The notes under the pieces are model-generated. The model did not search any database. It was not told the origin of the DNA and was given only the letters and a program-made list of their open reading frames with translations. DNA of 6,986 nucleotides from a virus (Duplodnaviria; Heunggongvirae; Uroviricota; Caudoviricetes). Below, piece after piece: positions 1 through 6,986 of the stretch. Position 1 is the stretch's first letter, and every line of letters begins with the position of its first letter. Location: IMG/VR virus record IMGVR_UViG_2690316285_000008, positions 1-6,986 of that record; one strand, given 5' to 3'. A program made the translations under genes and the position numbers.

Positions 1-437
1 GCCCATACCGGCGGCTTACCATCCGGATACTGGATCTTGTTTGTAAAAACCTCGCTTTCAATAAATTTTTTTCCGTGACAGCAGGGGCACTGTTTTTTGC
101 TCGCCGCGCTACGGGCATAATCTTCAAACGCATACGAAGCCATAATACGCATCACTGCCGGTTTTATTTCTGCCGGGAGTTTTCTTAACGCCGCCACGCG
201 ATCACACCGACTGAGTGCATATTCTGTCAGCAATTCTGTTGCCCGCTCTCTGTCATTCATACTAATGCCCATTTTCCCAAGGAACGCAGAAACCCCCATC
301 TCAGCCCGATTCTGTGTCATGCCCTGCGCGGCCATCACATCAGTGATACTCAGCGCATCTTTCGACGTTGAGGCCGATGCATCAGTCAGGCCGGGGGATT
401 TTGGGGAGTAGTATTTCGGTAAATCTTCCAGTTTCAT
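1..437 (-). CDS. Late-gene antitermination protein Q (lambda Q family), N-terminal ~145 codons; 3' end runs off the window start
   Basis: ATG at 437..435 overlaps the rusA stop (ATGA at 437..434) and the frame stays open to position 1. Translation begins MKLEDLPKYYSPKSPGLTDASASTSKDALSITDVMAAQGMTQNR, which parallels the lambda Q N-terminus as I recall it (MRLESVAKFHSPKSP...DVMAAMGMAQ). A CPCCHG zinc-finger-like motif follows near the window edge. Not in the ORF track because it is truncated. Confidence 0.75.
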   Translation of the reverse strand, partial: MKLEDLPKYYSPKSPGLTDASASTSKDALSITDVMAAQGMTQNRAEMGVSAFLGKMGISMNDRERATELLTEYALSRCDRVAALRKLPAEIKPAVMRIMASYAFEDYARSAASKKQCPCCHGKKFIESEVFTNKIQYPDGKPPVW

Positions 438-814
438 TTTTTGACCTGCTCTTCATGCATTATGGGGTAAATCTTCACCCCCAGACGTCCACCAGATACT
501 GGCTGACCACGAACGATATTGATTTCATCAAACTGCTCATCGTCCATTAGCAACCCCGCATGCGTCAGCGCATCCAGCGGCGCTTTCAGAATATTGTCCA
601 GGTCACGGCGGCGCTTATCCGGTGGTTCTGCAATAATTTTTATTGCCAACCTTCCGGACAGGCTTAATTTCAGCCGCTGCTGGCGAACAATAAGCGCCAC
701 TGCCCGGCGATAACGCTCCCCGGCTTTTGATACAAAATATGTGCTGCCACGACGACGCCAGTAAGTGTTCACCGTCGGCGGGTAAGGTAAAACAAATTCT
801 ATGCGCTCGGTCAT
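434..814 (-). CDS. rusA: RusA Holliday junction resolvase (crossover junction endodeoxyribonuclease)
   Basis: 126-aa ORF with ATG at 814..812. Carries the RusA hallmarks PYPPTVNTYWR and PPDKRRRDLDNILKAPLDAL. Sits immediately 5' of Q, as in lambdoid nin regions. Confidence 0.9.
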   Translation of the reverse strand: MTERIEFVLPYPPTVNTYWRRRGSTYFVSKAGERYRRAVALIVRQQRLKLSLSGRLAIKIIAEPPDKRRRDLDNILKAPLDALTHAGLLMDDEQFDEINIVRGQPVSGGRLGVKIYPIMHEEQVKK

Positions 815-1873
815 TTATGCTTTCCACTTCAGAACACCCGAATTTCTCGCGTGCATTAAAAAACGAATCAGCAACAACAGCTGACTGCCGTGTTTCTCTT
901 CAAAATCTTTTACTCCGGCATGTAGTTCGTTACGGCATTTACGGCATAACGGAATAACAAACAAATCATCAGCCTTTGTTCCCATCCCTCCCAGTCCATG
1001 ACCAATGATGTGATGCGGATCATCTGCCTGATTGCCACACGTCATGCATTTCTGCGTTTTTACCCAGCGCGTGTATACAGGCATCTCTTCCCGTTGTGAT
1101 TTCTGGCGCTGGAGATACTGAGCCGGTGACTCCGGATCAACGGCAATGCTGACCACCGTCTTTTCCTGTGGTGGGTTCTGTTGCTGGTGGACGTGAGGCA
1201 GTAACGCAATATTTTTTGTGCGCTGCTTCAGTATGCTGGTGGCTGTCTGCTCTCCCGGTATGATGTCGCTTTCACTGTACACAGAGCGAATTTTTTCCGC
1301 ACGCAACCCCAGCGAACGACGTAATACCGCTTCCGGTAGCGCGTCCGCCACCTGATTGCGGACCGCCCACCAGGATAATTCAGCCAGAGATAATTCACGC
1401 TCCTGCGTACCGCTTATTGCGTGACCGATGACGTCAATCATCCATGCTGACAGGTTTTGATGAGCAAGTTGCTCGAGTGATTCGGATGTCTGGTCACGCA
1501 GCTGGTTGTCGCAGTGCCAGCACAACACCATTGCGCCGGTACCATAACGGTGAATGACGGTTTCGCTGTGATGATAATCGCCGTGTGGCCACTGGCAGGA
1601 TTTAATATGGCGCAACAGCCAGTCAGACAATGCACCAGCACCACCAGCAGCACGAATCACCCGTGCGTTACTGAAAAACGGCAGCAATGTTTTGTCTTCC
1701 ACCAGCGGCTGGCGAGCGGCAGGAACGACCCCGGACGGCAGATTACGCATGCTTTTTGGTTCCGGCTCCACCAGTATTCTGCCGTTATGGAATGCTGACA
1801 TTGATTCACGGCCTGGCTTAACGATAACCAGACCGAGTTCCGGTACCAGAACAGGTCGAAGTAATACCCGCAC
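815..1873 (-). CDS. YdfU-like (DUF968-type) prophage protein with a C-terminal HNH-like zinc-finger motif
   Basis: 352-aa ORF whose stop TAA (817..815) directly abuts the rusA ATG. C-terminal region has CMTCG...DDPHHIIGHGLGG...VIPLCRKCRNELH (CxxC / HH / CxxC spacing typical of HNH nucleases). The listed start at 1873 is GTG; an in-frame ATG lies at 1801..1799. Size and position match ydfU of Qin. Confidence 0.7.
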   Translation of the reverse strand: MRVLLRPVLVPELGLVIVKPGRESMSAFHNGRILVEPEPKSMRNLPSGVVPAARQPLVEDKTLLPFFSNARVIRAAGGAGALSDWLLRHIKSCQWPHGDYHHSETVIHRYGTGAMVLCWHCDNQLRDQTSESLEQLAHQNLSAWMIDVIGHAISGTQERELSLAELSWWAVRNQVADALPEAVLRRSLGLRAEKIRSVYSESDIIPGEQTATSILKQRTKNIALLPHVHQQQNPPQEKTVVSIAVDPESPAQYLQRQKSQREEMPVYTRWVKTQKCMTCGNQADDPHHIIGHGLGGMGTKADDLFVIPLCRKCRNELHAGVKDFEEKHGSQLLLLIRFLMHARNSGVLKWKA

Positions 1874-1874
1874 A

Positions 1875-2153
1875 TTACCTCCAGATCCGTTGCTGGAATG
1901 TGCGGGACGGACGCGTTGGCCGTTCGGAGTAAGGGAGCCTGACGGAGATTATCCAGTGACGGTAGTCGAGGCTAAGGGCTTTTTTAACCTCGCATCCGCG
2001 CCTGCGGTAACACTGAATGAGCCATTCGGCCTGTTCTTCAGTGCATGGGGGATGCTGGTACCAATCAGATTTAAATGCGTGAGAGCGCCGCCCGTGCCTG
2101 CTGGCAAAGACGGCTGAATTATCAGAATTGTGTAGTCTGGAATTTTGCGCCAT
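1875..2153 (-). CDS. Hypothetical prophage protein (92 aa)
   Basis: ATG at 2153..2151 preceded by GGAG with a 7-nt spacer. Stop TAA (1877..1875) overlaps an ATG at 1875..1873 (TAATG). No recognisable family. Confidence 0.45.
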   Translation of the reverse strand: MAQNSRLHNSDNSAVFASRHGRRSHAFKSDWYQHPPCTEEQAEWLIQCYRRRGCEVKKALSLDYRHWIISVRLPYSERPTRPSRTFQQRIWR

Positions 2154-2219
2154 CGGCTTTCTCCGGTGGCACAGTGTTACTCAACAGGGGTTCAGCCCTG
2201 CGCTGAATTGTAGATGAAT

Positions 2220-2480
2220 TCACTCATCTTCAAAAGCAGAAAAACCAGCCTTAATCCCAGCTTCTTTCAGAGACGGCAACGATGTGACAAATTCATTTGC
2301 ACGCGAAATAAAACCATCCGTCACAAGCCCATCCACAAAATGAATTAACGCAGCTCCACTCTTCCTTTGTTGAGACTGTAAACATTTAATACGGCAGTGG
2401 CTGACAATAGCGCCATTCTCAACGCGCACAGTATAGAGGCCATCTTCACTAAAAATTTCACGTAATTCTTCGATTTTCAT
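2220..2480 (-). CDS. Hypothetical prophage protein (86 aa from the ATG; the track shows 87 aa from an upstream TTG)
   Basis: ATG at 2480..2478 preceded by GGAAGGA with an 8-nt spacer. The track start at 2483 is TTG. Positionally equivalent to rem of Qin, but the sequence is not recognised. Confidence 0.5.
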   Translation of the reverse strand: MKIEELREIFSEDGLYTVRVENGAIVSHCRIKCLQSQQRKSGAALIHFVDGLVTDGFISRANEFVTSLPSLKEAGIKAGFSAFEDE

Positions 2481-2555
2481 CAACAGAATCCTTCCAGATA
2501 AATAGCACTCCCCTGTTCGGGGTCCATCCCTCTTCTCCCTGCGCGCTACTTAAGT

Positions 2556-2592
2556 ATTTTTGATTCTATTCCGGCACCATCTAAAACTTCAA
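2556..2592 (-). promoter_or_regulatory. Candidate sigma70 promoter for the 86-aa gene and downstream operon
   Basis: On the minus strand TTGAAG (2592..2587), 18-nt spacer, TAGAAT (2568..2563), lying between the hok-1 terminator and the 86-aa gene. Motif match only. Confidence 0.25.
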
Positions 2593-2606
2593 ACGCGTTG
2601 AAAATA

Positions 2607-2631
2607 AAAACAAAAACCCGCCGAAGCGGGT
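2607..2631 (-). terminator. Intrinsic terminator at the 3' end of hok-1 mRNA
   Basis: Minus-strand hairpin CCCGC-UUCG-GCGGG (plus 2617..2630) followed by a U5 run (plus-strand A-run 2612..2616). Confidence 0.5.
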
Positions 2632-2700
2632 TAAGTGTGGGTGCATTGAGGATGCCTGACCCATCAGAGGTGGCGAGGGATTTCTCCCCCGCCTGGTCTC

Positions 2701-2856
2701 TTACTCCTCAGGTTCGTAAGCTGTGAAGACAGCGACCTCCGTCTGGCCGGTTCGAATTCGTACCTCGCAGAGGTCTTTCCTCGTTACCAGTGCCGTCACT
2801 ATGACGGTTAAACAGATGACGATCAGGGCGATTAACATCGCCTTTTGCTGCTTCAT
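2701..2856 (-). CDS. hokD: Hok-family type I toxin (51 aa), hok-1
   Basis: Translation MKQQKAMLIALIVICLTVIVTALVTRKDLCEVRIRTGQTEVAVFTAYEPEE from ATG 2856..2854, preceded by AGGAG with a 9-nt spacer. Matches my recollection of HokD/RelF and the Hok fold (TM helix then conserved Cys). It is the C-terminal part of the 70-aa ORF in the track. Confidence 0.85.
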   Translation of the reverse strand: MKQQKAMLIALIVICLTVIVTALVTRKDLCEVRIRTGQTEVAVFTAYEPEE

Positions 2857-2913
2857 AGCCTGCTTCTCCTTGCCTTTCGGCACGTAAGAGGCTAACCTAG
2901 ATTTGCCGTTCAT
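2701..2913 (-). CDS. Mok-like reading frame (70 aa), an in-frame N-terminal extension of hok-1
   Basis: ATG at 2913..2911 with GAGG 8 nt upstream; frame is continuous with hok (MNGKSRLASYVPKGKEKQA-MKQQ...), as I recall for chromosomal mok/hok pairs. Confidence 0.5.
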   Translation of the reverse strand: MNGKSRLASYVPKGKEKQAMKQQKAMLIALIVICLTVIVTALVTRKDLCEVRIRTGQTEVAVFTAYEPEE

Positions 2914-2978
2914 AGATTGAGCCTCAGATTAATGTTAAGCGTCTTGCCGGACGCGTAATGTTAACTGGGGCTTTTCTC
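2904..2978 (+). ncRNA. Candidate Sok antisense RNA for hok-1
   Basis: Plus-strand promoter-like TTGCCT (2870..2875), 17-nt spacer, TAACCT (2893..2898). Long imperfect hairpin with outer stem GCCUCAG (2921..2927) and CUGGGGC (2965..2971), followed by UUUUCUC (2972..2978). Antisense to the mok SD and start. Boundaries are approximate. Confidence 0.4.
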
Positions 2979-3026
2979 TATCTGCCTTTTGGTGTTCATG
3001 CCTGAGACAGATAGCCTCAAGCACCC

Positions 3027-3060
3027 GCTGCAATTCTACTTAACTCTCCTTTTCCCGCAA
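3027..3060 (-). promoter_or_regulatory. Candidate hok-1 mRNA promoter
   Basis: Minus strand TTGCGG (3060..3055), 16-nt spacer, TAGAAT (3038..3033), predicted start near 3026. The predicted 5' end GGUGCUUGAGG (plus 3015..3025) is complementary, with a 1-nt bulge, to a 3' element at plus 2640..2651, like the hok tac/fbi pairing. Confidence 0.4.
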
Positions 3061-3067
3061 ACCGTTT

Positions 3068-3151
3068 TTATCCCCAGCGGCAAATCGAATACACCACCAG
3101 CGCCACCGCCATCGCAATTCCTACCGTTGTTAATGCTTCAGGCCAGGTCAT
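3068..3151 (-). CDS. Small hydrophobic peptide, 27 aa ([27 protein letters not shown]), copy 1
   Basis: ATG at 3151..3149 overlaps the 114-aa gene stop (ATGA). GGAGGA lies 9 nt upstream. A second copy at 4601..4684 differs by 4 synonymous and 1 conservative change. Below the ORF-track length cut-off. Confidence 0.55.
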
Positions 3152-3492
3152 CGTAAAATATCCTCCACGCTTATCAGTCCGTTCCGCTCCAGATAACTCA
3201 TCGCCTTATCCGGTAATTTGCAGTCTGGCTTCGCTTTTCTCAGTTGCCAGGTTAACTGCTTTACCAGCATGGTTAACTCATCGACCAGACGCTGATATCC
3301 CACTGGTTTGTATTCATGCAATTTACCGGCTGGCTCTGCTGCCAGCGATACCAGTGCGATTTCCAGAACAGCAATATCCATCTTATATGTGCGGATGATG
3401 TCATGGTCGATTGTGCCCGGTATGCACAGTCTCTGTGCTTCAATAGTCTCCTCTGCGTGAGCTATTAACTGCTCTCTGGTAAAAGTCGTCAT
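3148..3492 (-). CDS. Hypothetical prophage protein, 114 aa (MTT-start paralog family)
   Basis: ATG at 3492..3490 overlaps the 55-aa gene stop (ATGA) inside a conserved 48-bp junction. N-terminus MTTFTREQL and a VSLAAEP segment are shared with the 55-aa and 221-aa proteins. Confidence 0.65.
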
Positions 3493-3897
3493 GCCGTAGC
3501 CCCTTCTTGATATTTTTCAAACCAGAACACAACCGGCTCTGCTTCCAGCGATGCCAGCGCAATCCGTGCCAGTTCCATTTGTTCACCACGGGTAAGCCCG
3601 TTTTCAAGCGGGTTTTTAATGAACAATTCAATACGTTCTTTGGTAATAGTGGTCATGTGTTACTCCTTAACCCGCAGTGCTTTCAACTGATGAGGGGAAC
3701 AAAATCTTTTCATCAAACCCTGCATTCATATCATGAACAGCAACACACCAATCCATCGACGAACGATTATCAAGAGCCTCCATGATTTCATCCATGCGGC
3801 GTAGGTCATACAGGTAAATGCTTTTATCGCCAATGGTGTAAAAGCCAATTTTTTTCGGTGATGGATGAGGTGTACTGGCAATAGCGGACACTACCAT
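3274..3897. repeat. Direct repeat U, copy 1 (identical to 6363..6986)
   Basis: Visual alignment shows identity over 623 bp at a constant offset of 3089 bp. The left boundary falls inside the 114-aa gene; the right boundary is limited by the window end. Confidence 0.85.
3489..3656 (-). CDS. Hypothetical small protein, 55 aa ([55 protein letters not shown])
   Basis: ATG at 3656..3654 with GGAG 6 nt upstream. Ends with the same 16 residues as the HNH protein because both 3' ends lie in the conserved junction. Not in the ORF track (under 60 aa). Identical copy at 6578..6745. Confidence 0.55.
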
Positions 3898-3936
3898 TTG
3901 TTCTTTTTTTAAGCAGCCATCTGATGAATCGGGCAT
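3667..3936 (-). CDS. Hypothetical prophage protein (89 aa from ATG 3936; 76 aa if ATG 3897 is used)
   Basis: Protein-like translation (...KKIGFYTIGDKSIYLYDLRRMDEIMEALDNRSSMDWCVAVHDMNAGFDEKILFPSS). Neither ATG has a clear SD. The track's 133-aa version starts at a GTG inside the hok-2 3' UTR and is probably over-extended. Confidence 0.45.
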   Translation of the reverse strand: MPDSSDGCLKKEQMVVSAIASTPHPSPKKIGFYTIGDKSIYLYDLRRMDEIMEALDNRSSMDWCVAVHDMNAGFDEKILFPSSVESTAG

Positions 3937-3978
3937 TATCTGAACATAAAACACTATCAATAAGTTGGAGTCATTACC

Positions 3979-4000
3979 AAAAAAACCGCCGAAACGGGTT
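3979..4000 (-). terminator. Weak terminator-like element at the 3' end of hok-2 mRNA
   Basis: Degenerate counterpart of the hok-1 terminator: short stem followed by a U7 run (plus-strand A-run 3979..3985). Confidence 0.3.
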
Positions 4001-4070
4001 AAGTGCGGGTGCGTTGAGGATGCCTGACACATCAAAGGTGGCGGGAGATTACTCTCCCGCCTGGTCACTC

Positions 4071-4226
4071 TTACTCTCTAGATTCGTAGTCTACGAAAAC
4101 AGCGACCTCCGTCTGGCCGATTCGGATTCGTACCTCGCAGAGGTCTTTCCTCGTTACCAGTGCCGTCACTATGACGGTTAAACAGATGACGATCAGGGCG
4201 ATTAACATCGCCTTTTGCTGCTTCAT
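4071..4226 (-). CDS. Hok-family type I toxin paralog (51 aa), hok-2
   Basis: Translation MKQQKAMLIALIVICLTVIVTALVTRKDLCEVRIRIGQTEVAVFVDYESRE from ATG 4226..4224. Identical to hok-1 through residue 34, diverged in the C-terminal tail. Confidence 0.8.
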   Translation of the reverse strand: MKQQKAMLIALIVICLTVIVTALVTRKDLCEVRIRIGQTEVAVFVDYESRE

Positions 4227-4283
4227 AGCCTGCTTCTCCTTGCCTTTCGGCACGTAAGAGGCTAACCTACATTTGTGAGACAT
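4071..4283 (-). CDS. Mok-like reading frame (70 aa), an in-frame extension of hok-2
   Basis: ATG at 4283..4281; N-terminus MSHKCRLASYVPKGKEKQA then hok in frame. Confidence 0.45.
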   Translation of the reverse strand: MSHKCRLASYVPKGKEKQAMKQQKAMLIALIVICLTVIVTALVTRKDLCEVRIRIGQTEVAVFVDYESRE

Positions 4284-4348
4284 AGATTGGGCCTCAGATT
4301 AATGTTAAGCGTCTTGCAGGACGCGTAATGTTAACTGGGGCTTTTCTC
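4274..4348 (+). ncRNA. Candidate Sok antisense RNA for hok-2
   Basis: Same architecture as sok-1, offset by 1370 bp: hairpin GCCUCAG (4291..4297) / CUGGGGC (4335..4341) followed by UUUUCUC (4342..4348). The 5' single-stranded tail differs from sok-1 at several positions. Confidence 0.4.
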
Positions 4349-4564
4349 TGTCTGCCTTACAGTGACATACCCGAGGCAGACAGCCTCAAGCACCCGCAGC
4401 AATCTTACCGACACCGATAAGAAAACGCTATTTTTTATTGCCAGCACCATCTATCCAGGCTAGTTTATCTGCGTCAGAACGGCGCAATGCGCTCGCCTGA
4501 GATACGTTTACTTGCCATGGTAACAACAGGTAACGGCAATTGCTGTTTCTGTTTTGTTTCCTTC

Positions 4565-4595
4565 AAAAACCCCGGACCATCAATCCGGGGTTTTT
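4565..4595. terminator. Bidirectional intrinsic terminator
   Basis: Perfect 6-bp GC stem CCCCGG (4570..4575) / CCGGGG (4585..4590) with a 9-nt loop, flanked by A5 (4565..4569) and T5 (4591..4595). Lies just 3' of the 27-aa gene copy 2. Confidence 0.65.
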
Positions 4596-4600
4596 GTTTG

Positions 4601-4684
4601 TTAACCCCAACGGCAAATCGAATACACCACCAGCGCCACCGCCATCGCAATTCCTACCGTGGTGAATGCCTCAGGCCAGGTCAT
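4601..4684 (-). CDS. Small hydrophobic peptide, 27 aa ([27 protein letters not shown]), copy 2
   Basis: ATG at 4684..4682 overlaps the DUF551-like gene stop (ATGA). AGGAGG lies 7 nt upstream. Followed by the terminator at 4565..4595. Confidence 0.55.
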   Translation of the reverse strand: MTWPEAFTTVGIAMAVALVVYSICRWG

Positions 4685-5046
4685 TGATTCACCTCCTGCG
4701 GTGGTTCCGGTAGCGGCATCCAGTGAGTTGAGCTCTCTACTTCAACGCCGTCTTTGTCCACAAAAGCCATCTTATTCCCGCCACGAGTGGGGCAAAAAAC
4801 CTTATCCCAGGAACCGGGGAATACATTCCCGAGATCATCGAGAAGAATCACATCGCAATATTCAGCAGGAACTGCATCACTACAGCTTATCCAGCCAGCC
4901 GGAGCTACCGGAGAGTTGCCAGCCTTACGCATGGCCATTTCCACGATTTCAACCATATCTCCTGGTGGAATTTTACAAAGTTGCCCAATACATTTCTGCT
5001 GCCTGGCATATTCGAGAATGTGCTCCAGTTTGGTTCGATTAATCAT
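4681..5046 (-). CDS. DUF551-like phage protein (121 aa)
   Basis: ATG at 5046..5044 overlaps the 221-aa gene stop (TAATG); GGGAG lies 7 nt upstream. C-terminal THWMPLPEPP and internal Trp/Gly pattern match my recollection of the DUF551 family. Confidence 0.65.
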   Translation of the reverse strand: MINRTKLEHILEYARQQKCIGQLCKIPPGDMVEIVEMAMRKAGNSPVAPAGWISCSDAVPAEYCDVILLDDLGNVFPGSWDKVFCPTRGGNKMAFVDKDGVEVESSTHWMPLPEPPQEVNQ

Positions 5047-5711
5047 TATTTATCTCCCTTAAGCATGGCAGCGCGGCAGGCGTTCCAGCCATCAACATAA
5101 TCAAACGTATTACTATCGTTTGGCCCGATTTCATCCGGCACTATCGGCTCTGGTTGGATAGTGACGTTGGCAAAGGCAGCACGCAAACCGGTTTTAATTT
5201 CTTCGATTTCATCAGAGCCAAGCGATGAATCTGACAGTGCGTGATGGAATGCGTAAGCCATGTCGTCGTTTACTGCAACCGGCACTGCCGGCGCTGCGTA
5301 AAGCGGTGTTATATCTGCCCGAAAATCACATGCTTTATGCAGTCGTACCCAACACTCAACTTCCGCTTTGTCAAAATATATAGCAGTGAACGTATTAGAT
5401 TCCTGGTCAACTTGAGTAAACGTCACCTTCCACGCTACAGCTACGGCTTTCCATCCATCAGGTTGTCGCATTCGCGGGGCAGCATAAAGCTCATGCATTC
5501 CATCAGGCAGCGAGTGACCCACATACTCACCGAACCCGTCAATACACATGCCCCCATCTTCAACAATGCATTCCGCTACAGGCTCTGCTTCCAGTGATGC
5601 CAGAGCGATAAGCGCCAGTTCACGAATTTCACCGCCGTCTATATCGTCAATATCATCGCGGCCAGAAATGTTAGCCAGCCATTGCAGTCGCTCTTTGGTA
5701 ATAGTGGTCAT
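5046..5711 (-). CDS. Hypothetical prophage protein, 221 aa (MTT-start paralog family)
   Basis: ATG at 5711..5709 overlaps the HNH stop (ATGA) in the conserved junction, with AAGGGG 7 nt upstream. N-terminus MTTITKERL and [12 protein letters not shown] are shared with the 55-aa protein. LYAAP occurs twice internally. Confidence 0.7.
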   Translation of the reverse strand: MTTITKERLQWLANISGRDDIDDIDGGEIRELALIALASLEAEPVAECIVEDGGMCIDGFGEYVGHSLPDGMHELYAAPRMRQPDGWKAVAVAWKVTFTQVDQESNTFTAIYFDKAEVECWVRLHKACDFRADITPLYAAPAVPVAVNDDMAYAFHHALSDSSLGSDEIEEIKTGLRAAFANVTIQPEPIVPDEIGPNDSNTFDYVDGWNACRAAMLKGDK

Positions 5712-6073
5712 GCCGTAGCCCCTTCTTGATATTTTTCAAACCAGAACACAACCGGGTCAGATTTCATTTCAACCAATCCCATACGAACCAGCGCTTTGCC
5801 TTTCCCGGACGCAAGGAATTCACGACGACCATCACTGATAATTCGTCGATAATCTTCCAGGCTACTGCAATGCTTGTGCAGATTGCATGGGTGGCATGCT
5901 GGTACCATGTTGGATATATCGTCACGTTCCTGGTGAAGCATATTTCCATCAAAACGAATGACCGGTTTTACATGGTCTGCATGCCACTTTTCGCCAAGTT
6001 CGCAGCCGCAATAAGCGCAGCGACCACCGAACTTCATGCGCAGTTCTGCACGTTGTTTTTTCGTCAGTGCCAT
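5708..6073 (-). CDS. HNH endonuclease (121 aa)
   Basis: ATG at 6073..6071 with AAGGAAAG 6 nt upstream. Motifs CAYCGC, HADHVKP, N...PACHPCNLHK fit the HNH zinc-finger nuclease pattern. The track's 151-aa version starts at a TTG. Confidence 0.85.
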   Translation of the reverse strand: MALTKKQRAELRMKFGGRCAYCGCELGEKWHADHVKPVIRFDGNMLHQERDDISNMVPACHPCNLHKHCSSLEDYRRIISDGRREFLASGKGKALVRMGLVEMKSDPVVFWFEKYQEGATA

Positions 6074-6074
6074 A

Positions 6075-6293
6075 TCAGCTTTCCTTATACGGATTAATTT
6101 TATTGTGCAGTGTGTTGAATGACGCCCATACCACGTCGTTATACAATTCAATAACTGGCTCAATTATTTTTCCGATTATCCAGACAAAAATTAGCGGGGA
6201 TATCGGTGTCATCAACACGATAAACAGAATGAGAAACAGGAATTCTGTTGTTCTACTCTTTCGCGGATATTTTTTTCTAAATAATGTAACCAT
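6075..6293 (-). CDS. Candidate small membrane protein (72 aa) in an AT-rich segment
   Basis: ATG at 6293..6291; Lys/Arg-rich N-terminus then a hydrophobic stretch FLFLILFIVLMTPISPLIFVWIIGKII. Stop is 1 nt before the HNH start. GC content of 6090..6300 is clearly lower than the surroundings, so chance hydrophobicity is possible. Confidence 0.4.
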   Translation of the reverse strand: MVTLFRKKYPRKSRTTEFLFLILFIVLMTPISPLIFVWIIGKIIEPVIELYNDVVWASFNTLHNKINPYKES

Positions 6294-6296
6294 TCA

Positions 6297-6581
6297 TTAC
6301 CGCCCTTTCGAGCGGTCTCCTGATGATTTGAGGGTGCAGAAATCCCTCCGGTTAAGGATTAATAACTCATCGACCAGACGCTGATATCCCACTGGTTTGT
6401 ATTCATGCAATTTACCGGCTGGCTCTGCTGCCAGCGATACCAGTGCGATTTCCAGAACAGCAATATCCATCTTATATGTGCGGATGATGTCATGGTCGAT
6501 TGTGCCCGGTATGCACAGTCTCTGTGCTTCAATAGTCTCCTCTGCGTGAGCTATTAACTGCTCTCTGGTAAAAGTCGTCAT
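6297..6581 (-). pseudogene. Truncated/chimeric copy of the 114-aa gene
   Basis: First 73 codons are identical to 3148..3492; identity ends at the repeat boundary (6363) and the frame runs 21 more codons into unrelated AT-rich DNA before TAA at 6299..6297. Confidence 0.5.
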
Positions 6582-6745
6582 GCCGTAGCCCCTTCTTGAT
6601 ATTTTTCAAACCAGAACACAACCGGCTCTGCTTCCAGCGATGCCAGCGCAATCCGTGCCAGTTCCATTTGTTCACCACGGGTAAGCCCGTTTTCAAGCGG
6701 GTTTTTAATGAACAATTCAATACGTTCTTTGGTAATAGTGGTCAT
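6578..6745 (-). CDS. Hypothetical small protein, 55 aa, identical second copy
   Basis: Lies in the exact repeat (offset 3089 bp from 3489..3656), with the same RBS and ATGA overlap. Confidence 0.5.
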
Positions 6746-6755
6746 GTGTTACTCC

Positions 6756-6986
6756 TTAACCCGCAGTGCTTTCAACTGATGAGGGGAACAAAATCTTTTC
6801 ATCAAACCCTGCATTCATATCATGAACAGCAACACACCAATCCATCGACGAACGATTATCAAGAGCCTCCATGATTTCATCCATGCGGCGTAGGTCATAC
6901 AGGTAAATGCTTTTATCGCCAATGGTGTAAAAGCCAATTTTTTTCGGTGATGGATGAGGTGTACTGGCAATAGCGGACACTACCAT
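6756..6986 (-). CDS. Second copy of the 89/76-aa hypothetical protein; 5' end may lie beyond the window
   Basis: Identical to 3667..3897. The window ends exactly on the ATG equivalent to 3897, so the equivalent of the 3936 start would be outside the window. Confidence 0.45.
   Translation of the reverse strand: MVVSAIASTPHPSPKKIGFYTIGDKSIYLYDLRRMDEIMEALDNRSSMDWCVAVHDMNAGFDEKILFPSSVESTAG

Follow-up and report, generated by a model that had tools for sequence, protein, structure and literature searches.

Shigella chromosomes contain 229-348 copies of insertion sequences (IS), with IS1 and IS600 among the expanded families (PMC7373316). The closest described relatives of the DNA considered here are two lambdoid prophage remnants of Shigella sonnei. 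The first, at the ompW locus (remnant A), carries Q, RusA, DUF968, rem, hok/sok, a 27-aa ORF and genes of 114 and 55 aa, with an IS600 inserted in an 87-aa gene. The second, at the ttcA locus or Rac position (remnant B), has the block order IS1-107aa-DUF4014-HNH-221aa-DUF551-27aa-hok-IS1. Both are found in the same S. sonnei genomes, approximately 122-125 kb apart and in the same orientation. An IS-free version of the part of remnant B relevant here, block X, is present in E. coli FDAARGOS_944 (L001; 99.6% identical), and E. coli prophages carry the undisrupted module DUF4014-87aa-55aa-114aa-hok.

Two kinds of known process bear comparison with the arrangement described here. Lambdoid phages exchange mosaic modules at conserved gene-boundary linkers, as formulated in the models of Hendrix, Juhala and Clark. 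RecA-independent duplication with short or no homology, and template switching (FoSTeS/MMBIR), are known in bacteria and humans and usually leave a microhomology of 2-10 nt.

The window, i.e. the whole stretch of 6,986 nucleotides that was analysed, shares with the ompW remnant all of the genes listed above and the same IS600 site. The S. sonnei remnant differs from it in lacking an added unit of 3,089 bp, both of the joints that bound the inserted DNA, and an E. coli-type patch in rusA. The second copy of a long direct repeat, a feature recorded in a first-pass annotation, is part of this difference.

Composition of the window and its related loci

All genes of the window lie on the minus strand and correspond to the early-right (nin) region of a lambdoid prophage. 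The window consists of three pieces. Positions 1-3927 represent remnant A of the S. sonnei type, in the order Q <- rusA <- DUF968 <- rem <- hok-1 <- 27aa <- 114aa <- 55aa <- 87aa' and then IS600, and end 63 bp inside that element. This piece is 99.87% identical (five mismatches) to the reference set of 11 Shigella-type loci (L003-L012 and L044), which includes Ss046 (CP000038) and CP104423. Positions 3928-6362 begin with the last 51 bp of an IS1 and represent remnant B, with 99.7-99.96% identity (1-7 mismatches) to the ttcA-locus remnant (L013-L022). Positions 6363-6986 return to remnant A at 100% identity (L003:8850-8227) and end 33 bp inside IS600. Read on the plus strand in the coordinates of L003 and L013, the window is therefore composed of A(...8197), B(9784...7350) and A(8850...8227). 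The coordinates of the features are shown in Table 1.

The added unit comprises 654 bp of remnant A, with its limits at codon 73 of the 114-aa gene and at a point 63 bp into IS600, and 2,435 bp of remnant B, reaching from 51 bp inside IS1 through hok-2/sok, the 27-aa ORF, DUF551, the 221-aa gene and HNH to DUF4014. Exact look-up of the DUF968 protein led to S. sonnei chromosomes such as Ss046, and the look-ups of the DUF968, RusA, 221-aa and 55-aa proteins returned only standard contexts. The window belongs to the decayed, insertion-sequence-rich prophages of an S. sonnei-like genome, and the unit itself is no new kind of genetic element.

Table 1. Features of the window with their positions (position 1 is the first nucleotide)
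Feature	Position	Strand	Remarks
Q antiterminator gene, partial	left window end, codon 146	minus	
RusA	434-814	minus	
DUF968	815-1873	minus	
rem-like ORFs	between DUF968 and hok-1	minus	
hok-1 region	2612..3034; sok 2851-3026	minus	HOK_GEF in gene tables; sok is Rfam RF01794
27-aa ORF, hok-1 side	3068-3151	minus	
114-aa phage gene, intact	3148..3492	minus	phrog_660, function unassigned; first 73 codons inside repeat
Repeat copy 1 (U)	3274..3897		5' two-thirds of 114-aa gene, 55-aa gene, 87-aa remnant, 33 bp of IS600
55-aa gene	copy 1 3489..3656; copy 2 6578-6745	minus	phrog_3323/60 N-terminal module
76-aa ORF	3667..3897; copy 2 6756-6986	minus	87-aa gene (phrog_1714) cut by IS600
IS600 terminal 63 bp	3865..3927		outer terminus 3865, internally truncated at J1
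IS1 terminal 51 bp	3928..3978	plus	right inverted-repeat end; outer terminus 3978 abuts hok-2 terminator; truncated at J1
Block X	3979..6362	minus	from remnant B
hok-2	4071-4283	minus	Pfam HOK_GEF
sok of hok-2	4221-4395		Rfam RF01794
27-aa ORF, block X	4601-4684	minus	
DUF551	4681-5046	minus	
221-aa gene	5046-5711	minus	
HNH endonuclease	5708-6073	minus	Pfam, PHROG
DUF4014	6075-6293	minus	
Conserved 70-nt linker	6293-6362		upstream of DUF4014
94-aa fusion ORF across J2	6297..6581	minus	codons 1-73 of 114-aa gene plus 21 linker codons
Repeat copy 2 (U')	6363..6986		left edge is joint J2; ends at window end
IS600 end in copy 2	6954-6986		33 bp, ends at window end

Collinearity of the S. sonnei loci with the window holds for 2393-3927, and for the whole of 1-3927 in L009 (CP064376) and L044 (CP044151). 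A segment of 250 bp in the rem region (2143-2392), absent from most S. sonnei loci, is present in these two loci and in the window. Two SNPs, at 3238 and 4170, are private to the window; both are synonymous. At the 3' end of rusA the window departs from all Shigella-type loci in a cluster of four positions (450, 456, 467 and 507) and there agrees with the common E. coli allele, while the flanks (1-293 and 602-814) are of the Shigella type; the cluster represents either a short patch of 58-308 bp resembling a conversion tract or paralogous paths mixed by the assembler. Remnant A of S. sonnei also contains, adjoining ompW, a second DUF4014 gene with part of its linker in inverted orientation (L003:5228-5504 versus window 6047-6320, 88%) and with an IS1 beside it, which suggests an earlier IS-associated inversion at this copy. 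The hok/nin-region DNA of record PP818812.1 is 94.7% identical to the E. coli/Shigella-type sequence of the window; its label, Actinobacillus pleuropneumoniae phage vB_Apl-pPE4, names a host that is odd for such DNA.

In the home locus at ttcA, block X lies between two direct, full-length copies of IS1. The copy next to hok-2 is inserted directly after the T-run of the hok-2 terminator, at the same nucleotide as in the window, where the IS1 is reduced to a stub of 51 bp joined to the IS600 stub. At its other end the home block continues into a 107/118-aa gene and the second full IS1, whereas the block of the window is cut and joined to the repeat. The IS1 stub is 100% identical to both IS1 copies of L013 and is annotated as IS1A in an E. 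coli record. The 63-bp IS600 stub matches several IS600 copies at 100% and is annotated as IS600 in E. coli records.

Both hok loci contain a HOK_GEF ORF together with an Rfam sok match, as is characteristic of hok/sok type I toxin-antitoxin systems, and both are located outside the repeat. The divergence of roughly 10% between them that had been given at first holds, since the hok-1 region is 90-91% identical to the region of hok-2; the repeat families D2 and D6 between the hok loci are 93% and 88% identical, respectively. A hydrophobic ORF of 27 aa (MTWPEA[L/F]...) is conserved upstream of both, and it begins in an ATGA overlap with the stop codon of the gene before it, which is the 114-aa gene in one case and the unrelated DUF551 in the other. 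This ORF had no Pfam or PHROG match and is unannotated in the E. coli records; in one database protein the 114-aa gene reads through into it.

The proteins of 55, 114 and 221 aa begin with a common module of about 50 aa, MTT[FI]T[KR]E...LASLEAEP (phrog_60/3323/660/5117), and the 55-aa and HNH proteins have a common tail of 14 residues. These shared modules give rise to a linker of 66-77 nt, 91-95% identical, at otherwise unrelated gene boundaries (3471-3547, 5690-5766 and 6560-6636). The 70-nt linker upstream of DUF4014 contains the GC hairpin CCGCCCTTTCGGGCGG and ends in ...GGATTAA in four different prophage contexts, after which the sequences diverge.

The direct repeat and the two joints

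Direct comparison at a fixed offset showed the two repeat copies to be identical at all 624 positions on the same strand. The perfect identity reported initially is thereby upheld, with a length of 624 bp in place of 623 bp. The copies are spaced 3,089 bp from start to start. This figure, originally given as the length of the flanked segment, is correct for the spacing and for the unit removable by recombination (one repeat copy plus spacer); the true spacer (3898..6362) is only 2,465 bp long. The left edge of the repeat is abrupt: over the 200 nt that precede each copy the identity is 27%, which is the level expected by chance. At the right, identity persists to the last base of the window, which cuts copy 2, and this edge is no true boundary. 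A perfect match of 624 bp within 7 kb cannot have arisen by chance.

Both copies are 100% identical to the single copy of U in S. sonnei genomes, and E. coli alleles of U show 1-5 differences over 592 positions. To its left, copy 1 runs on into the remainder of the 114-aa gene, just as U does in the reference genomes. Each of the 11 Shigella-type loci has one U, with an intact IS600 after it (L003:6996-8259, 1,264 bp, with recognisable inverted repeats). IS600 has cut the 87-aa gene after 66 nt, and the ATG and first 11 codons of the resulting 76-aa ORF are IS600 sequence; this follows from the homology of E. coli 131 and L035, which stops at 3865 and 6954, where the reference loci go on into IS600. 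The last 33 bp of each repeat copy are therefore IS600, the 87-aa gene being interrupted there. Past position 6986, after 30 further shared bases, the interior of the reference IS600 reads ...TATTTTTCCCTGAAGG. The IS600 end in the repeat, the IS600 and IS1 stubs between copy 1 and hok-2, the source of the insert in a second remnant and the gene truncated by copy 2 are all absent from the first-pass annotation. Rfam had no match inside the repeat, and the arrangement is absent from the records of the phage database; no function of the repeat itself is evident.

The inserted DNA is bounded by two joints. At J1 (3927/3928) the interior of IS600 is joined to the interior of IS1. At J2 (6362/6363) the upstream end of the linker of block X is joined to codon 73/74 of the 114-aa gene; on the side of remnant B the break lies 24 nt downstream of the stop codon of the 107/118-aa gene. 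The resulting 94-aa ORF is a truncated duplicate of the 114-aa gene. At both joints the maximal matches to the parents abut without overlap, so that the joints are blunt and without microhomology, and neither is located at an IS terminus. The breakpoint on the X side of J2 coincides exactly with the end of the conserved 70-nt linker, which borders different genes in other prophages.

Neither joint was found elsewhere in the collections searched. Exact 30/31-mers across J1 and J2 had zero matches in IMG/VR, the GTDB representatives and the JGI metagenomes, most of which contain little Shigella DNA. BLAST searches of both joints against 5,426 complete E. coli genomes gave no contiguous match, the two E. 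coli records that covered at least 80% of the J2 query being non-collinear two-piece hits. Both joints are absent from all 44 loci fetched. The joint-spanning ORFs (94, 133 and 89 aa) had no exact match in an index of 15 billion proteins, and none of 64 relatives retrieved by homology search with the 94-aa fusion carries its C-terminal tail. The protein index clearly includes Shigella, as thousands of blocks carry the neighbouring proteins, whereas the nucleotide collections searched hold little or none.

Origin of the arrangement

With moderate confidence, the repeat is read as the footprint of a private and very recent duplication-insertion in an S. sonnei-like chromosome. The very recent duplication proposed at the outset agrees with the zero differences between the copies and with the 100% identity of both to the U of S. 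sonnei: the copies are identical and direct, and the relatives have a single copy without the joints. The event would have added the 3,089-bp unit to remnant A beside ompW, along the path A...8850 to B 7350...9784 to A 8197..., i.e. by two jumps between co-oriented loci, and the direct repeat would result from the backward return into A. One of the joints would be of the deletion sense (A8850/B7350) and the other of the duplication sense (B9784/A8197). Such a path could have been produced by switching template twice in the course of one replication or repair event, or by a large tandem duplication (B9784/A8197) that was later trimmed by a deletion (A8850/B7350). The event is deduced from the arrangement of the sequence, which is equally compatible with both routes. 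Against the duplication-insertion stand the absence of microhomology, which is unusual for template switching, the position of both J1 breakpoints just inside IS ends (63 and 51 bp), window ends that resemble those of a short-read contig, the coincidence of the X-side breakpoint of J2 with a linker end, for which this reading does not account, and the small share of Shigella DNA in the collections searched for the joints. Copy 2 carries the IS600 end and so derives from the Shigella allele that IS600 had disrupted. An origin of copy 2 in another phage was rejected, as it is identical to the resident Shigella allele including the IS600 end and the E. coli alleles differ.

An assembly artefact had also been considered at first. 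In the form of repeat collapse or a k-mer misjoin this fails: a de Bruijn or overlap misjoin is unable to create J1 and J2, because the parents share zero bases there. The joints are probably real, and the part of the idea that survives is that the order of the pieces may be a path chosen by the assembler. It is a less likely alternative that both joints exist in the DNA and that the contig order L-U-J1-X-J2-U was such a choice. J1 and J2 together close a loop of 3,089 bp (A 8197-8850 plus B 7350-9784). Whether this loop is inserted in A, inserted in B (X-U'-X), repeated in a longer tandem array or present as a free circle, k-mer content and copy numbers are identical. The window crosses several multi-copy nodes, namely U, of at least 624 bp, and the two IS stubs (63 and 51 bp), both of which lie on the path from U to X. 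Its right end falls exactly 33 nt inside IS600 and its left end in mid-Q, as in a short-read assembly of the k=33 type, the region is found on contigs of 2-10 kb in thousands of public assemblies, and the four rusA SNPs that match a paralogous allele are consistent with path mixing. On the other hand, a plain de Bruijn contig cannot hold the same 624 bp twice, which implies some repeat resolution (read pairs or long reads) behind the path, and the window end also falls on an ORF start (the ATG of the 76-aa ORF), so that it may be the cut of a scan instead of a contig end. If one of the other three arrangements were the true one, hok-2 would not lie between two repeat copies beside ompW in the way shown.

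A chimeric contig, with neither joint present in the genome and the pieces brought together by chimeric reads or by a scaffolder, is very unlikely. The joints are indeed blunt and unique to this sequence, and the breakpoints of J1 just inside two IS ends are typical contig stops. However, two independent joints 2.4 kb apart would hardly yield a consistent insertion-duplication, J2 lies between two single-copy sequences, in which a contig would not be expected to break, and the IS overhangs of 63, 51 and 33 nt do not fit one k-mer size.

The persistence of identity to the last base of the window, and a J2 of the type that such a duplication creates, would also agree with a true head-to-tail tandem duplication of the unit (3274-6362 twice), with the window cut in the second unit; hok-2 and HNH would then recur after 6986. 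This reading is unlikely. It still needs a prior J1 that joined B to A in the duplication sense, it is no simpler than the duplication-insertion, and within the window the two look alike.

An origin driven by homology or by an element, i.e. by gene conversion, module exchange at linkers, an IS1 composite transposon or HNH homing, is extremely improbable. Block X carries an HNH gene and is flanked by the two direct IS1 copies in its home locus, conserved linkers of 66-77 nt occur between the nin-region genes, and the X side of J2 lies at a linker end. Gene conversion, which had been among the first suggestions, fails because there is no homologous recipient tract beside X in the home locus: beyond L013:7350 the sequence adjoining X is no more similar to U than expected by chance. 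The joints lie off the IS termini, and only 51 bp of IS1 are present, without a target duplication. The U side of J2 lies inside a gene and not at a linker, and the insert carries IS stubs, which homing or module exchange would not.

Individual candidates of this kind were examined and rejected. For an IS1 composite transposon there is only one IS1, represented by its last 51 bp, with the outer terminus facing hok-2 and the broken end on IS600, and none at J2. For transposition of IS600 (IS3 family), copy 1 keeps only the terminal 63 bp of the 1,264-bp element. For HNH homing, the ends of the insert are an IS1 stub and a break in the middle of a gene, with no flanking homology. Recombination at the 77-nt linker D3 or at a GGTTAA microhomology does not fit the observed joint sequence. 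Chi-stimulated exchange was likewise dismissed, the nearest Chi sites being at 3094 and 4627 and not at the joints.

A one-step, homology-independent double template switch or break repair, in which the break may have started at the DUF4014-HNH linker, e.g. by the action of the cassette's own HNH nuclease, appears quite unlikely. The breakpoint on the X side of J2 is exactly at a natural mosaic boundary. If true, an HNH-initiated switch would offer a snapshot of lambdoid nin-region modules gaining new neighbours.

Consequences and comparison with known systems

It is well established that RecA-dependent recombination deletes DNA between direct repeats several hundred bp long. With direct repeats of 624-654 bp, such recombination could delete or amplify the unit added by the duplication-insertion. 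Deletion between the copies would most likely restore the standard S. sonnei arrangement, provided that an intact IS600 follows copy 2. The genetic instability predicted early on is thus reasonable, and the predicted product of the 3,089-bp deletion is probably the arrangement of every Shigella-type locus compared. The locus is expected to be unstable, or to appear in the wrong order when IS-rich Shigella genomes are assembled, and the case is relevant mainly for quality control and bookkeeping.

The operon has gained an additional hok/sok and HNH cassette; this cassette and the truncated 94-aa duplicate gene are by-products of the rearrangement, and neither design nor function should be read into the repeat. 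It is the ordinary outcome of a rearrangement in a genome rich in IS. If confirmed, it would represent one blunt-ended duplication-insertion between two prophage remnants, of modest interest for the exchange of cassettes in decaying prophages.

The locus resembles the products of lambdoid module exchange in its mosaic of the nin type, with 87-55-114 and HNH-221-DUF551 as alternatives between DUF4014 and 27aa-hok and with shared linkers. It differs in that the joints do not lie in shared linkers on both sides and that IS debris has been carried along; the rearrangement is secondary, inside one bacterial genome, and not a shuffling of modules between phages. With RecA-independent duplication followed by trimming, and with FoSTeS/MMBIR, it has in common two novel joints and a short direct duplication that encloses foreign DNA, whereas the microhomology that such mechanisms usually leave is absent from both joints here.
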